DNA from: a virus
Taxonomy: Duplodnaviria; Caudoviricetes
IMG/VR virus record: IMGVR_UViG_3300020048_000120
Span: 4,883-68,882 of that record
Strand: one strand, 5' to 3'
DNA: 64,000 bases
Part shown: piece by piece, positions 1,230-46,318 of the stretch
How the letters are laid out: each line of letters starts with the position of its first letter
Position numbering within the stretch: position 1 is the stretch's first letter
The notes under the pieces: generated by a model
What the model saw: only the letters and a program-made list of their open reading frames with translations
The model's database searches: none
Told to the model about the DNA's origin: nothing
Made by a program: the position numbers and the translations under genes

Positions 1230-2500
1230 CGAAGGCCTTCAGTAGTGATCGTTAATCACTACCCGCAGCATAACCTGCAGCTGCATAATTTCTATGCAGA
1301 CTAGACTATATCTTCATCCTTCTTAAAAAGTTAGGATGTCTCCTATTTCGACCTCACTTGAGATCTACTCCATTCCTGGATAGTCGTTGAACGTTCTCCA
1401 CTGCTCGCGCATAGAGGAGCTTCGCTGCTGATTGCCCAATCTTTACATTTTTCAAACCATGGCTTTATCTTTCGATTAGCAGTGGTAGTAAAGCTCTAAG
1501 GGGTTTCCAGCAATTAAAGAGATTTTTTGTATCTGTATTACTACAGATAGGTGGCATGAGCATTTTAACTTTACTAATAAAACAATAATATACCAAAGTG
1601 TCGTTCGATATAATATTTTGAAACATGATATCACTCCCAACCATTAAAACCTTTTAAATATCTTAATAAGTAATCGTGGTATGGATCTTTATGATCGCAG
1701 TCTAAGAGTTCTAATACTTTCTCTTTTTCAAATCTTGTATCATTTAAAAACTTAGATAAATTATATAAAGACTGCTGTTTAGTAGTAACATTTAAAACAA
1801 ATATATCTATATCACAAAATAACGCCTCTTTAAGTCCAAATCCTCTTAAAATTCGTGATTTAAAAATATCATTATTTATAGATAAATCATTAAGCCATTC
1901 ATGCACTGGTTTAACTATATCGTCATGATTAACTTGTTGTTTAAATAATTTTGTATTTGCAAATTGCTCTCTAGGAGTGCTCCATTTACAATTTTCTTTA
2001 TAATATCCTTTATCACTATCAATTCTATCAATGGACGTATTATGTGGTCTTGGTCCCATGTCATTATAAAAGGCTTGAAAAGATTTAAGCCATTCATTAC
2101 AAACAGTAATACCGCGTTCTCCGTAGAGATAATATTTTCTAGCTTTTGGATTTCCGCAGCGTTGAATCATATTTTCCCAAGTACTATATTCTCTACTTCC
2201 ATTCATTCCGTGTTTAGTGGAAATCATTACTCGATAGCAACCACAACTTTTTATTTTGGATCTAATTAAATGACTCATTAGAACTTCTTTAACATTACCA
2301 CAGTCACATTGACAACTAAAAGTTCTACCATTTTTTGCAATAGGTAGTTCTTTAAGAACTGTAAGCATGTTAAATTTTTGTCCAATGGTTATGTGCAACG
2401 GTTTCATTTCATCGCTATTCCTTCTCATAAAATAGTTTTAGATCGACACATCTAAAACCTTGGTTTAAAATATTTTAGTAAAGTTAAAAACTTGTTATTT
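1230..2500 (-). mobile_element. Group I self-splicing intron (IA2-like) with homing endonuclease
   Basis: Minus-strand core elements: P AATTGCTGGAAA (~1501-1515), Q AATCAGCAG (~1425-1433), R GTTCAACGACTA (~1381-1392), S AAGATATAGTCTAG (~1301-1314). P7 is GACTA/TAGTC, with P7.1/P7.2 hairpins before the P3 3' strand. Exon 1 ends in U and the intron ends in G (1230). Removal restores ...LTDCSGG|KGVICK... Confidence 0.92.
1631..2428 (-). CDS. Intron-encoded HNH homing endonuclease
   Basis: CQCDCGN, KSCGC, YSTWENMIQRC, YGERGITVC.EW and SIDRIDSDKGY..ENCKW motifs of phage HNH endonucleases; lies inside the intron, 5' of the ribozyme core. Confidence 0.9.
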   Translation of the reverse strand: MRRNSDEMKPLHITIGQKFNMLTVLKELPIAKNGRTFSCQCDCGNVKEVLMSHLIRSKIKSCGCYRVMISTKHGMNGSREYSTWENMIQRCGNPKARKYYLYGERGITVCNEWLKSFQAFYNDMGPRPHNTSIDRIDSDKGYYKENCKWSTPREQFANTKLFKQQVNHDDIVKPVHEWLNDLSINNDIFKSRILRGFGLKEALFCDIDIFVLNVTTKQQSLYNLSKFLNDTRFEKEKVLELLDCDHKDPYHDYLLRYLKGFNGWE

Positions 2501-33393: not shown

Positions 33394-35514
33394 TTAATAT
33401 CCTACCTCGCTTATAAGCATCTCATGTTTAGGGAAATATCCTAATGATTGTAAAATAATCCTATTAGGTAAAGTTAAATCTAATACTATCTTCTTTATAT
33501 TAATAACTGATTTAATTTCTTCAGGTATACCAAAAGAAGTTATATAAGATATAGATATATAGATAGTAGGTAAATCTGTTTTATCATATTTAATTAACCA
33601 AGAACTAAGTCTAGTAGCTAATTCTTTATCTTCTATATTAGCTAACCATTCTTTTACACCTGTTATATTTAATACAGTTGTTGGTATCTTGATAACCGTA
33701 TAAGGCGGTGGAGATATACTACCGTATTTATCTGCAAATATATCTACCCAAAATAAATGATGTAAGTATGGTGACATAGCTTCACCTCTAGCATATGCTT
33801 CAGGTTGCTTTACTTTTGATTTTTTATAGTATTCTACTTCTCCATTTAAAAGAGATTTTTGAATATTTCTTTCTATGGAAGCCAAATCTTTAAGTTCATC
33901 TATTATAGATATTTTTTCCCCTCTCATAACTGTGGCTAATATATTATCCATTTTTTTACTAGAAGCTTCTATAAGACTCTTAGGTGATGCACTATTTTTT
34001 AAATGCACTCCTTTTTGTTCTCTATCTAATTCTTTAAACACACTACCTTCTTTAACCATAATACATGTATAGTAATGTTTAGATACAGAAGTTTGTGCAA
34101 ATACAGGAAATACAAATTCTGGCTTTAATTGTATATCGTAAAGTTTACTACGTTCTACACTAATGTTAGCTGAAAACATAGCCAATATATGTGCCATACA
34201 TTGTGTAGATAAATACATTATAGAACCAGATAATGCAAAGGCTTCATCATGAAATACTAATTTACCAAAATACCAGATTACCCATTCATCCATAGCAAAC
34301 ATAGTACTATCTGTATCCGATACTACTACTGTTCTTCTTATCATATTACGTATAAATGCTGTACCAGATGGAGTATTTTTAGTTAGAAATATATTTTCTA
34401 TAAAATCTCTATATTTCATAATTACATTTATAACATTTAAAGAAGTCGCTGCTATGGTATTTACTTGTTCTGGCATTATTTTACTATAGTCTTTTCCTAT
34501 ACCTCTTGTTTCTAATAAACAAATTTGATGAACATAATTAATAATAGAACTATCTATAGACTTTAATGTAGCTAAAGGATCTGGAACAACTACATCTGTA
34601 ATTTTACTACTTAATTCTGTTAAGAAAGTTCTAACGAAAGATTCATTATGTAATCTAATATGATAAAGATCGCTTATATAAACTATAGCTGCTCTTTCTA
34701 CGTCTTCTAGATTTAATATAAAACTATGTATTTTATTAAAAGCATTTCTATCTCTCCAATAAAGATCAGTTGAATATAGTATACAAGATTCTGTTTCTTC
34801 TATGGATGGATATTTTAAATTATATTTAGTTATTATATTTCTAAAGGATTCTTTATCTAGAGAACTAGTTATATTTATAATATCGTAAAGAGTTACATCT
34901 GGATTTCTATAATGTCTATTACCTGAAATAATCTTTTCATTACTAGCATTACCTAATGAACTAACTGTTCTAGTTATAGATGTTAATGTACTGTGTGCTG
35001 TTGGATTATGTAAAATAGTCCCTTCACTAGCAAATCCTCCAGATGCTCCGTTACTATAAAGTTTATGATTAGCTTGTTCGTTATCTTTAGCTATAAAAAG
35101 ATCTATTTGTTTATTAGCTTTAGCTATAGCCGCTTCTATTTTTACTTTACTTCTAATACGTGTACTATTAAGAATAAAATTAACTAGTAATGATGGTTTA
35201 ACACTACTTTGTAAATATGTTGTAAAAGTTGGAGCTAAAATTTCATTTTCAGAAACTACTGTATTTATATAGTTACTTAAAAAGCAACTAGTTTTCTTTT
35301 TATCGCCATTAGTATCTCGTTGATAATAATGTACTATTGGATCAGCCGCATTAATTACTTTATTTTTTATACCTTTTATTATAAATTCTTTACATTCTTC
35401 TATATTTTTACCGGACATTTTAGATAAGTAAAAACTATTTTGACCCACATATTGATGTAATGGGCTAATGTCGCGTTTATAAAATTCAGTAGGTCTAAGA
35501 AATATATTTTCCAT
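33394..35514 (-). CDS. Family B DNA polymerase, catalytic subunit (phiKZ gp50-like)
   Basis: Motif B-like EQANHKLYSNGASG and motif C-like VVSDTDST; VSKHYY. Confidence 0.85.
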   Translation of the reverse strand: MENIFLRPTEFYKRDISPLHQYVGQNSFYLSKMSGKNIEECKEFIIKGIKNKVINAADPIVHYYQRDTNGDKKKTSCFLSNYINTVVSENEILAPTFTTYLQSSVKPSLLVNFILNSTRIRSKVKIEAAIAKANKQIDLFIAKDNEQANHKLYSNGASGGFASEGTILHNPTAHSTLTSITRTVSSLGNASNEKIISGNRHYRNPDVTLYDIINITSSLDKESFRNIITKYNLKYPSIEETESCILYSTDLYWRDRNAFNKIHSFILNLEDVERAAIVYISDLYHIRLHNESFVRTFLTELSSKITDVVVPDPLATLKSIDSSIINYVHQICLLETRGIGKDYSKIMPEQVNTIAATSLNVINVIMKYRDFIENIFLTKNTPSGTAFIRNMIRRTVVVSDTDSTMFAMDEWVIWYFGKLVFHDEAFALSGSIMYLSTQCMAHILAMFSANISVERSKLYDIQLKPEFVFPVFAQTSVSKHYYTCIMVKEGSVFKELDREQKGVHLKNSASPKSLIEASSKKMDNILATVMRGEKISIIDELKDLASIERNIQKSLLNGEVEYYKKSKVKQPEAYARGEAMSPYLHHLFWVDIFADKYGSISPPPYTVIKIPTTVLNITGVKEWLANIEDKELATRLSSWLIKYDKTDLPTIYISISYITSFGIPEEIKSVINIKKIVLDLTLPNRIILQSLGYFPKHEMLISEVGY

Positions 35515-39159: not shown

Positions 39160-39233
39160 AAATTTCTGTACTATTAAATAAATGGTGCCTGGGATCGGAC
39201 TCGAACCGACATGCCTTACGGCGAGGGATTTTA

Positions 39234-39824
39234 CTTACCACTTCAATTTTCATTGCCATTATAAAGGTATAATGTTTGTGGTCTGGACTATGCTATCGCC
39301 ATATTGAGAAAAAACACAATAAGTAGCTAGATACTCATGCTTTTCAAATATATTTTCTCAACTTAGGCATTCCGTCTCTAGTCTCTACACCTTCCTTAAA
39401 CTAGCAATTATACCGACTATGGAGTTAACCTCTAGTTGCTAGAATTATTGGTCTCTATTAAGGCTTGGCTCGGCGTTAGCGTGTACGATTGGAAGAGTAC
39501 TATTCCGCGTTATTGAAATGGGTAATTACTCCATCCGTTAACAGTTCTTGAGTTAAGGCTAAACTTCTACCCTTAAACCCTCACTCTCTACATTCTTTTT
39601 AATCATCGTATTTAGCGTTCGCCGAATTTACGGAAATACTACTAACGTCTTTCGATTGAGTTGTTACGCCAATAAGTTAATAACAGGGAGTAAGAGTCGA
39701 ACTTACATGAAGAGTCGTGGCATTGATCATCTTCTTACCATGTGCCGTTAGCGTCTACCGTTCCGCCATCCCTGTTAATAACTTACTGACTACCAACTCA
39801 TTTTTCGCTAGTGACCCATTTAAA
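39234..39824 (-). ncRNA. ORF-less group I intron in tRNA-Leu
   Basis: P1 GACU/GGUC with U.G at the splice site; P AAATTCGGCGAAC, Q AACGCCGAGCCAAG, R GTAGAGACTA, S GCATAGTCCAG; P3 TTCCGT/ACGGAA; P7 GACTA/TAGTC; terminal G at 39234. Confidence 0.9.
39673..39785 (-). ncRNA. tRNA-like domain nested in the 5' part of the intron
   Basis: ACAGGGA/TCCCTGT acceptor, TG-GCG-GAACGGTAGA-CGC D arm, GTAAG-TTCGACT-CTTAC T arm; no canonical anticodon arm and no CCA; acceptor extended by about 10 bp. Confidence 0.75.
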
Positions 39825-40233
39825 AGTCCCTTGTGTATACCAAATTTCACCACCCAGGCAAAACACCTTAGATAAATATATTCGACAAAATATACGTATC
39901 ATATTGTCATTACAGCCAAGTGTGGAACTGTAATCAAGACTACAAATTATTAATGTTACCTTCCAAACCAATAATTAAATTAAGGAGGAAATCTAATTAC
40001 CGGCCCTACATGGTTTTAGTATAACAAAAATAACCTTAGCCATTCTACATTTAATTTTGAGCGTTAGTCTTACCGTCAACCCGATACAACTTATTACCTG
40101 TCTTCGATAAAGCATATCTGCCTTAACAACAGTTGGGCGCGTCTCAAACTATTAAATAAGGATATAGCTTCATACTTAACTAGGTTTAGTAACCTTGCAA
40201 GTAAACATACCTAAACTAAGTAGAAGCTATAAC

Positions 40234-45346: not shown

Positions 45347-46318
45347 TTATAATACTAAACCATCTTCTGTAGAGGCTACATTTCCTGAAATGATAGATTT
45401 AGGGTTAATCATTTTACGAGTTTCATCATATACCGCTATCTTATTATTTAACTCACCGACAACTGAGTTAAAAAATCCAGATATTAGACATGCGTGTATA
45501 GGCATCTCTACCATACTCGAGTCCTTAACAAAATCAGGAATATAACCGGTAGCCTGATACTCTACTGGTACATTACTATCGTGAGTTTCAGACTCTGACG
45601 CTAAAGTAACTAAAGATATTAAGTGAGTTCCTTTTACCAACTCAATTTCCTTACTATAAAAATCAAGGAACGTTAATTTAGCTGGGAACGAAGTAACCTT
45701 GTGATAGTTTAACCAATTATTAAGGTCTGCACTATCTAACTCTCTATTAAAACCACTAAATATAGTTGCTAATAGAACAATGGTTGATTGAACTTCGCTG
45801 TCAACCATTCCGCGCGGTTTAGCGTTAGTATTTTCACGATAGAAAATATTAACTGGCTTACCACGTTTTTGTGAAATGGACTCGTACGACTTCAGAGTAT
45901 TTAGCGTGTTTTCAGTTTCAATACGTGACCCACTGCTACCAACAAGAATTACGATAACTAATTCGTCTCTGGAAAGTAGCTCACTGACTAACACTGGTCC
46001 AATAACGTTTCCAGTACCGCCGCCGCCGCTGTGTACAACAATGTTAATGTTCCCTGGTTTAAACTTATGTAAGATAGATTTTGACTCTTCATATAATGTT
46101 TGATAGTTGCTAGTTCGTAACTTACCAGAACCATCAACATTATCTACCTTATAAATCATTTCAACTGGAAGAGCATTAATCTTATTGCTCTCGCTTGTGT
46201 CTATGAACGCAGTTTCAAGTATAGCAAAACCCTCAGTTTCCTTACCTGAGTTTTTTACGAAATGGCTGACTACATTTGTTGCCATACCACCACACGCATA
46301 TAAACGCAGTGTATTCAT
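45347..46318 (-). CDS. phuZ: PhuZ phage tubulin
   Basis: LYACGG, DTS.SN, GSGKLR and HSGGGGTG tubulin signature; short acidic tail EDGLVL. Confidence 0.95.
   Translation of the reverse strand: MNTLRLYACGGMATNVVSHFVKNSGKETEGFAILETAFIDTSESNKINALPVEMIYKVDNVDGSGKLRTSNYQTLYEESKSILHKFKPGNINIVVHSGGGGTGNVIGPVLVSELLSRDELVIVILVGSSGSRIETENTLNTLKSYESISQKRGKPVNIFYRENTNAKPRGMVDSEVQSTIVLLATIFSGFNRELDSADLNNWLNYHKVTSFPAKLTFLDFYSKEIELVKGTHLISLVTLASESETHDSNVPVEYQATGYIPDFVKDSSMVEMPIHACLISGFFNSVVGELNNKIAVYDETRKMINPKSIISGNVASTEDGLVL

Follow-up and report, generated by a model that had tools for sequence, protein, structure and literature searches.

We analysed a 64-kb stretch of DNA (hereafter, the window) out of the 68.9-kb IMG/VR virus record IMGVR_UViG_3300020048_000120 (CheckV completeness ~25%). 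A minus-strand cluster of transfer RNA (tRNA) genes in the window contains a tRNA-Leu(UAA) gene that is split by a 591-nucleotide (nt) sequence with the features of a group I intron, and one peripheral arm of this putative intron ends in a second, tRNA-shaped fold. An earlier annotation made from the letters alone (the sequence-only reading) had proposed that two exons join into an 86-nt tRNA-Leu(UAA) and that the sequence between them is a group I intron devoid of an open reading frame (ORF), and both proposals were borne out. The joined exons (Table 1) gave a molecule of 86 nt with an encoded CCA end that ARAGORN called as tRNA-Leu(taa), and the unspliced locus gave no tRNA call with either ARAGORN or Rfam. 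The exons were mapped by a script of our own; the intron options of ARAGORN missed even the true split locus.

The sequence of the locus permitted two splice registers (ACU/U... or ACUU/..., the slash marking the junction). The intron was placed between U33 and U34 because group I introns end in G, and the homologous intron L135, whose first base is C (GGGACT/CAATATGGGTCAC ... GGTAAG/TAAAATCCC), confirmed this placement; exon 1 ended in ...GACT in the homologs as well. The intron does not occupy the classical Leu.3Ug site between U34 and A35. In the nomenclature of Williams (bioRxiv 10.1101/2020.01.27.920355), it is a position 2 intron with U-1 and a terminal G, whereas the classical cyanobacterial and plastid Leu intron lies at position 3.

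The exon and the internal guide paired in P1 with a U.G wobble at U(-1), and P1 was also predicted in the minimum-free-energy (MFE) fold of the whole precursor; in L135, the site was unambiguous. The intron ended in a terminal guanosine (omega-G; ...GUGGUAAG), an end conserved among the homologs, and a P10 pairing of UUUA with UAAA was possible. The core strings AACGCCGAGCCAAGC and AAGGTGTAGAGACTAGAGACGGAAT, together with the S-like string GATAGCATAGTCCAG, were found within the intron, and we take them to be almost identical to the corresponding strings in the IC3 introns of Azoarcus and Anabaena. P3 was read as UUUCCGU/ACGGAAU, followed by AAA as J3/4, and P4 as UUCGGCG/CGCCGAG with an extension of ~145 nt as P5 inside it. 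P6 lay on CCAAGCC and P8 was a 71-nt hairpin, P7 was GACUA/UAGUC with its 5' strand within AAGGUGUAGAGACUAGAG and its 3' strand within GAUAGCAUAGUCCAG, and P9 was CCAC/GUGG with a GAAA loop upstream of the intron end UAAG. No ORF longer than 57 amino acids was present at the intron locus on either strand. These sequence features identify the element as a group I intron that lacks an ORF, is of the IC3-like kind found in bacterial tRNA genes and follows U33; it is presumably removed by self-splicing.

Table 1. Features of the split tRNA-Leu(UAA) gene, of its predicted intron, of related modules and of the surrounding region. Positions are those of the window unless a homologous locus is named.
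Feature	Position	Strand	Basis
tRNA-Leu(UAA) exon 1, 35 nt, 3' end ...GGGACU (U33)	39825..39859	minus	joined exons called by ARAGORN
tRNA-Leu(UAA) exon 2, 51 nt, begins UAAAAUCCCU, CCA at end	39183..39233	minus	joined exons called by ARAGORN
Predicted group I intron, 591 nt, IC3-like, ORF-less	39234..39824	minus	U.G in P1, terminal G, core strings, nhmmer homologs
P1: exon GACU (39828-39825) with internal guide GGUC (39816-39813), U.G at 5' splice site	39813..39828	minus	sequence reading
Catalytic core P3-P9, terminal G at 39234	39234..39636	minus	sequence, Rfam, homologs
Branched P2, outer helix CUAGCG (39811-39806)/CGUUAG (39647-39642)	39642..39811	minus	framework conserved, compensatory changes
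Distal 2-bp stem with GAAA tetraloop (UCGAAAGA)	39655-39648	minus	conserved P2 framework
P2.1 arm base, 5' strand GAGUUGGUAGUC	39788..39799	minus	in nearly all homologs; closing helix covaries
P2.1 arm base, 3' strand GGCGUAACAACUC	39658..39670	minus	conserved; closing helix covaries
Hypervariable P2.1 tip, here rod (12 bp, U.U mismatch, 9 bp) and cloverleaf	39671..39787	minus	tip comparison, fold prediction
tRNA-Leu-like cloverleaf, 93 nt, acceptor ACAGGGA/UCCCUGU	39683..39775	minus	RNAfold, alignment
D arm GCGGAACGGUAGACGC, Leu type	39751..39766	minus	matches tRNA-Leu genes
Central ('anticodon') arm, enlarged: GGCA/UGCC and UGGU/AUCA, 9-nt loop	39719..39746	minus	fold
T arm GUAAG-UUCGACU-CUUAC	39690..39706	minus	pattern search
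Cloverleaf in P8 of L252: ACAUACA, UG, CCG-AAACUUGGUAUA-CGG, long central arm with 9-nt loop, GAAGG-UUCAAAU-CCUUC, UGUAUGU	L252, 334-442
Cloverleaf in P8 of L268	L268, 273-377
Cloverleaf in P6 of L244	L244, 2312-2384		ARAGORN call tRNA-???
tRNA-Arg(UCU)	40310-40234	minus	tRNA cluster
tRNA-Met, after the split gene	39159-39084	minus	tRNA cluster
150-amino-acid ORF between the two tRNA-Met genes			tRNA cluster
tRNA-Met	38346-38271	minus	tRNA cluster
Strong terminator-like hairpin closing the tRNA cluster	38228-38197
PhuZ tubulin	45347-46318	minus
phiKZ-type DNA polymerase	33394-35514	minus

Homologs of the intron were collected by pattern searches. A scan of viral contigs with AAGGTGYAGAGACTMGA gave 119 loci, and 64 of 120 segments could be mapped, mostly as tRNA introns of ~190-215 nt. 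The more specific pattern TTTCCGTAAATTCGGCGAA, covering P3-J3/4-P4, gave 9 viral and 51 metagenome loci. Viral and metagenome contigs yielded about 60 homologous introns. Alignments by nhmmer over most of the length of the window intron were found for L273 (1e-42), L233 (3.5e-42), L246 (1e-40), L284, L232 and L254 (about 1e-38) and L135 (3e-35). Most homologs followed ...GACU in tRNA-Leu(UAA) exons within tRNA clusters, and L233 shares a 208-kb contig with L064, one of the phiKZ-type polymerase relatives. The strands of P3, P4, P6, P7 and P9 could be aligned across more than 40 homologs; since the search pattern itself dictated P3 and P4, these two carried no information on covariation.

The alignment revealed a family-wide P2 framework, GGGUCAC-UAGCG-AAAAAU-GAGUUGGUAGUC-(tip)-GGCGUAACAACUCAA-(U/G)(CGAAAG/GGAAAC)-CGYUAGUAGUA-UUUCCGU, in which P2 is a three-way junction of an outer helix, a 2-bp hairpin capped by GAAA, and a side arm that we named P2.1. 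Compensatory changes among 18 distinct frameworks were detected in the P2 outer helix (CG/UA, UA/CG/AU, AU/UA and AU/GC) and in the P2.1 closing helix (AU/CG, GC/AU and UA/AU/GC), and it is through these two helices that the group I intron is backed by covariation. Covariation across homologs had been suggested in the sequence-only reading as a check on the structure, and it held for these helices; the nested module, which no homolog carries, lies outside its reach. The tip of P2.1 was unlike in each of 33 distinct members, ranging from 6-9 nt (L146, L260 and L231, the last with 9 nt) up to 158 nt, and the side arm was absent altogether in L135, which has a plain 8-bp P2 with a GAAA cap. An asymmetric internal loop at the base of P2.1, GUAGUC (39788-39793, minus strand) opposite GGCGUAA (39664-39670, minus strand), was nearly invariant across the family and is probably a tertiary-contact or protein-binding motif. 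Inserts of 20-90 nt were also observed within the loop of P1, which separates the guide from the 5' splice site (upstream of GGGTCAC), in L273, L286, L245, L289 and L261; since several members carry them, P1 is another variable site.

In the window intron, the P2.1 tip was predicted by RNAfold to form a four-way cloverleaf in the order ACAGGGA / UG / GCG-GAACGGUAGA-CGC / central arm / 12 unpaired nt / GUAAG-UUCGACU-CUUAC / UCCCUGU, and this module folded independently inside the MFE structure of the whole precursor. The sequence-only reading had seen here, between P1 and P3, a tRNA-like fold with a 7-bp acceptor, a Leu-type D arm, a canonical T arm and no CCA, all of which was recovered. Its description of the anticodon region as scrambled was mistaken, as the central arm in fact forms a hairpin of 8 bp, interrupted by an internal loop and closed by a loop of 9 nt (GGCA-CA-UGGU-(AAGAAGAUG)-AUCA-A-UGCC, 4+4 bp). 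The acceptor does continue into the intron as it had stated, not by about 10 bp but by 2 bp, a U.U mismatch and 12 bp, beyond which come the conserved internal loop and the 6-bp closing helix at the base of P2.1. The module thus stands on a rod of ~21 bp in all, a 12-bp helix and 9 bp separated by the U.U mismatch, the innermost 7 bp of which are the acceptor stem.

All positions that form the elbow of a tRNA were in place (U8, A14, the D-loop GG, U54-U55-C56, A58 and G53-C61), and the module showed the features of an RF00005-type cloverleaf, namely a 7-bp acceptor, a D arm with GG, a UUCRANN T loop and G53-C61. It had neither a 5-bp anticodon stem with a 7-nt loop nor free ends, a discriminator or CCA, the acceptor helix running on as a paired rod in both strands. 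ARAGORN made no call for the module, and a search with E values up to 10 gave no match to the Rfam tRNA model. The window has a single occurrence of the D-arm pattern combined with the T-loop pattern, whereas none of 100 shuffles contained it, and the exact D- and T-arm pattern of the module had no match in the viral contigs. When the cloverleaf was folded together with the rod, the structure was unusually stable (z = -4.07).

The likeness of the module to tRNA-Leu was evident at several levels. Of 19 positions of its D region, 17 agreed with the tRNA-Leu genes of related contigs and 13 with the host exon. A global alignment with the spliced tRNA-Leu(UAA) of the host gene contained 56 identities, the difference lying mostly in the anticodon loop, which is expanded by ~13 nt in the module. 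One internal deletion was sufficient to obtain a tRNA call from ARAGORN (48 of 800 variants).

None of the about 60 homologous introns carried the window module, and the closest ones (L273, L233, L246, L135 and L231) had unrelated or very small tips at its position. The module is dispensable for the ribozyme family, because the tips all differ, L135 lacks the side arm and L231 has a tip of 9 nt. By this comparison of sequences, the window module is a lineage-specific insertion at a hypervariable tip, and it could be young.

TRNA-shaped modules were detected at other peripheral sites of the family, two in P8 (L252 and L268) and one in P6 (L244). Their sequences are all different, and each keeps U8, the D-loop GG, the UUCRANN T loop and G53-C61; the 7-nt anticodon loop is kept in none of the four complete modules, including that of the window. 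Smaller P8 junctions in L232/L284, L253/L242 and L257 bore T-arm-like hairpins, singly or in pairs (for example, UGCAG-UUCGAAU-CUGCG and UGUGG-UUCGAAU-CCACA). In 24 kb of unique intron sequence, a 5-bp stem closed by a UUCRANN loop occurred 8 times on the sense strand and 0 times on the antisense strand, compared with 0.2 times in shuffles. The sequence-only reading had taken the intact D and T loops of the window module as a sign that the tRNA elbow is under selection, and the complete cloverleaves of the three relatives lend this indirect backing. Retention of the elbow with loss of the 7-nt anticodon loop fits selection for a tRNA-like shape without decoding. The same pattern also fits a tolerance filter, in which the helix tip accepts few inserts and the phage tRNA clusters supply many donors. 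A shared 'GAUGA' or box C/D-like motif in the central arms of the modules was considered and rejected, as ~0.1 occurrences of a shared 5-mer are expected by chance among three stretches of ~50 nt and the geometry is unfit for a K-turn.

Two of the loci carrying P8 modules were repeated, as checked by script. L252 (JGI20216J20342_1118588, 1-1459) was an exact head-to-tail repeat of a related intron alone with a period of 549 nt (0 mismatches in 910 compared bases) and the junction ...GUGGUAAG/UUAUUGGGUCAC, without exons, as would be expected of an assembled full-length excised intron circle. This repeat would be indirect evidence of self-splicing activity. A similar repeat in L268, with a period of about 663 nt, was inexact and had about 40-100 extra bases at the junction. 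Besides the modules within introns, free-standing tRNA-like genes of 108-122 nt were observed in tRNA clusters of viral contigs with IC3 tRNA introns (L174:6487-6597, plus strand; L216:8491-8598, minus strand; L176:6627-6748, plus strand). Their D arm is of the Leu type (UGGCGRAAUGGUAGACGC), their T arm is canonical, their acceptor has 7 bp (AGUCAGG or AGUCUUG) and their central region spans 60-75 nt; none was called by ARAGORN.

Taken together, we consider it about an even bet (probability of roughly 0.5) that the intron of the locus is functional and splices itself, and that its tolerant tip bears a peripheral cassette that derives from tRNA-Leu, folds on its own and is neither a decoder nor a part of the catalytic machinery. 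In this reading, the tRNA-Leu(UAA) gene of a phiKZ-like jumbo phage carries after U33 an IC3-type group I intron without an ORF. The intron is one of a lineage that occurs mainly in phage-like tRNA clusters and that combines a three-way P2 with a conserved P2.1 arm whose tip tolerates any insert. The cassette at this tip would be derived from a tRNA-Leu(UAA)-type sequence with all the elbow-forming nucleotides kept; its ~21-bp acceptor continuation would seal it, and the ~13 extra bases in the anticodon loop would disable decoding. Since a tRNA folds by itself and brings its own 5' and 3' ends together, a helix tip can accommodate one and leave the ribozyme undisturbed. The exons, the core, the intron family, the variability of the tip and the likeness to tRNA-Leu are demonstrated by the sequences; we infer that the intron is spliced, that the predicted fold forms in vivo and that the cassette acts there as an autonomous tRNA-derived passenger or structural cap with no role in trans.

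Several results weigh against this reading. The window intron missed the gathering score of 50 of Rfam Intron_gpI (RF00028), with 18.1 bits (E 0.047) and a match covering only P3-P4-P6-P3'. The low score is ascribed to large inserts that break the model; the short homolog L144, which matched the 3' domain of the window intron by nhmmer (E = 7e-11), scored 53.4 bits, above the threshold. The stability of the isolated cloverleaf was ordinary (z = -0.71). A passive passenger leaves unexplained the four independent modules with flawless helices and elbow in which the 7-nt loop is always lost, and likewise the T-arm-like hairpins on the sense strand only. The recurrence of the modules together with this sense-strand excess hints at selection for tRNA shape, possibly for a partner.

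In the first alternative, which we hold possible though unlikely, the module is a selected tRNA mimic acting in trans. The elbow would recruit a factor or titrate a host defence protein directed at tRNA, or the module would be released as a small RNA. Candidate partners are a T-arm-modifying enzyme or chaperone, ribonuclease (RNase) P, and leucyl-tRNA synthetase, which is known as a splicing cofactor of group I introns; in the variant with release, a stable tRNA-like small RNA would arise from the excised, possibly circular, intron. Cloverleaves at three peripheral sites of one intron family, with a conserved elbow and central loops that are always non-canonical, are better accounted for by this alternative, as are their recurrence and flawless helices. 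The sense-strand enrichment of T-arm-like hairpins and the free-standing Leu-type tRNA-like genes in the clusters of intron-carrying contigs (L174, L216 and L176) also speak for it, and precedents exist in the tRNA-like domains of YrlA (PMC4201824) and in CYT-18 as a group I splicing cofactor (PMC4275181). It is opposed by the absence of any ortholog of the window module, and hence of demonstrated conservation, and by the finding of no candidate partner gene within the window. With its acceptor helix unbroken and lacking a leader, a discriminator and a CCA, the module is ill suited to RNase P/Z or a synthetase, and its easy release by RNase P/Z is made less likely. A decoy for anticodon nucleases was rated low, the central loop being unlike any anticodon loop. 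The broader proposition that the lineage repeatedly acquires and maintains sealed tRNA-shaped modules, either since the elbow is a selected handle for a tRNA-binding protein, such as a modification enzyme, a chaperone, a synthetase, RNase P or a factor of the phage, or since the excised, possibly circular, intron is a stable tRNA mimic during infection, seems to us a little more doubtful still.

Next in rank, and improbable in our estimate, the module would be a young neutral pseudogene, namely a copy of tRNA-Leu(UAA), possibly once intron-bearing, that was brought into the tolerant loop by illegitimate recombination and has not yet decayed. The uniqueness of the module among the about 60 homologs, the rapid turnover of the tips and the likeness to tRNA-Leu(UAA) agree with such an origin. 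In addition, UGGUAAG in the expanded central loop (39740-39734, minus strand) is identical to the last 7 nt of the intron (39240-39234), a match that was spotted post hoc and whose chance probability is estimated at about 0.002-0.005; this repeat could be the remnant of an intron of the family that has collapsed, or a coincidence. A neutral pseudogene is, however, hard to reconcile with the perfect pairing of every helix, with a rod that prolongs the acceptor in register with the conserved P2.1 arm, unlike a random insertion, and with the intact analogous modules at other sites in relatives. Finally, chance resemblance or mis-assembly, with no real tRNA-like fold or no real intron, could be argued from the missing Rfam and ARAGORN calls for the nested domain and from the weak Rfam score of the intron, but it is essentially excluded by the absence of the D-arm and T-loop pattern from all shuffles, the 7/7 acceptor adjoining the T arm with U8, GG and G53-C61 all present, the many homologs with covariation, and the exons that join exactly into a tRNA.

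The cassette-bearing intron was compared with known systems. It resembles the bacterial IC3 tRNA introns (cyanobacterial/plastid Leu.3Ug, Azoarcus tRNA-Ile and fMet.2Ug) in its U(-1).G, its terminal G, the lack of an ORF and the GAAA loops of L2 and L9, and it shares the tRNA-Leu(UAA) host gene with Leu.3Ug. It differs from them in its insertion one base earlier (after U33), its length (591 nt compared with about 200-250 nt), the branched P2, the conserved P2.1, the large P5 extension, the phage host and the cloverleaf tip. Devoto et al. (2019; PMC6784885, Fig. 4) described 'enigmatic' tRNA introns in Lak megaphages and noted of one intron that it 'itself may encode a tRNA'. Both cases concern a huge phage, an intron in a tRNA gene and a tRNA-like sequence within the intron; the Lak introns were left unclassified, with no group I core reported, whereas the tRNA-like piece in the window is a peripheral arm of a full group I ribozyme.

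A rod joined to a tRNA-like domain is also found in the YrlA-type Y RNAs of bacteria and phages (Chen et al. 2014, PMC4201824). The window module shares with them a long helical rod and mimicry of T arm, D arm and acceptor without a usable anticodon; a search with E values up to 10 gave no match to any Y RNA family of Rfam. The rod of YrlA is attached where the anticodon stem would be, and its acceptor is closed. The connectivity in the window is the opposite, the rod continuing the acceptor stem and the central arm being closed, and the window module is embedded in an intron and not free-standing. Homing-endonuclease ORFs and other optional inserts in the peripheral loops of group I introns likewise occupy a tolerant helix tip, are present or absent among close relatives and leave the core independent, but the window insert is a tRNA-derived structured RNA and not a protein gene. 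No account of a tRNA-like domain within a group I intron turned up in full-text literature searches, and the tRNA-like peripheral module is a real add-on that apparently has not been described.

The group I introns of tRNA-Leu genes are textbook examples; on the common view, their outer arms bear plain hairpins, tetraloop contacts or endonuclease genes. In the present case, one defined intron family of phage-like tRNA clusters holds whole tRNA-shaped folds on tolerant tips, at three sites and in different members. If the modules are passengers only, they show how self-contained RNA folds can be captured and shuffled as ribozyme cassettes. If they are selected, the tRNA mimics of phages would gain a new, embedded class, which would matter for host defences directed at tRNAs, for the processing of tRNAs in nucleus-forming phages and for the protein-assisted folding of ribozymes; should the elbow be a handle or the intron a mimic, the intron would be the carrier of a second functional RNA and not a purely selfish insert. 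The family alignment supplies natural pairs with and without modules for a comparison of splicing.

The window (GC content ~30%) is a fragment of a distant, uncultured chimallivirus-like (phiKZ-like, PhuZ-encoding) jumbo phage, because it encodes PhuZ and its polymerase has just 39% identity to that of the closest cultured relative, Bacillus phage AgentSmith; the remaining matches of the polymerase were phiKZ-like phages. A search of GenBank phage DNA with the whole locus returned a sole match, an uninformative 51-nt T-arm in Xanthomonas phages. Neither nhmmer nor blastn found the window intron within 10 kb of the polymerase in 80 polymerase-related jumbo-phage loci; the tRNA region is not syntenic. 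At least one Rfam-level group I intron was present in 27 of 50 records of polymerase-related contigs, with up to 9 each (G003, G004, G005, G020, G042 and others), often in tandem a few hundred bases apart. These introns were rejected as relatives of the window intron, being of another kind of about 300 nt; one of them, in L088, received an unchecked tRNA-Ser call in the intron mode of ARAGORN, and no tRNA host was found for the others.

A second group I intron of the window (1281-1589, minus strand; 90.9 bits, above the Rfam threshold) sits between the ORFs 303-1193 and 1631-2428 and splits one gene. The downstream part of this gene had a weak match to RNA polymerase Rpb2 domain 6 (22.2 bits, cut-off 23.4), and from this match the element looks like an intron inside a phage multisubunit RNA polymerase beta-like gene.

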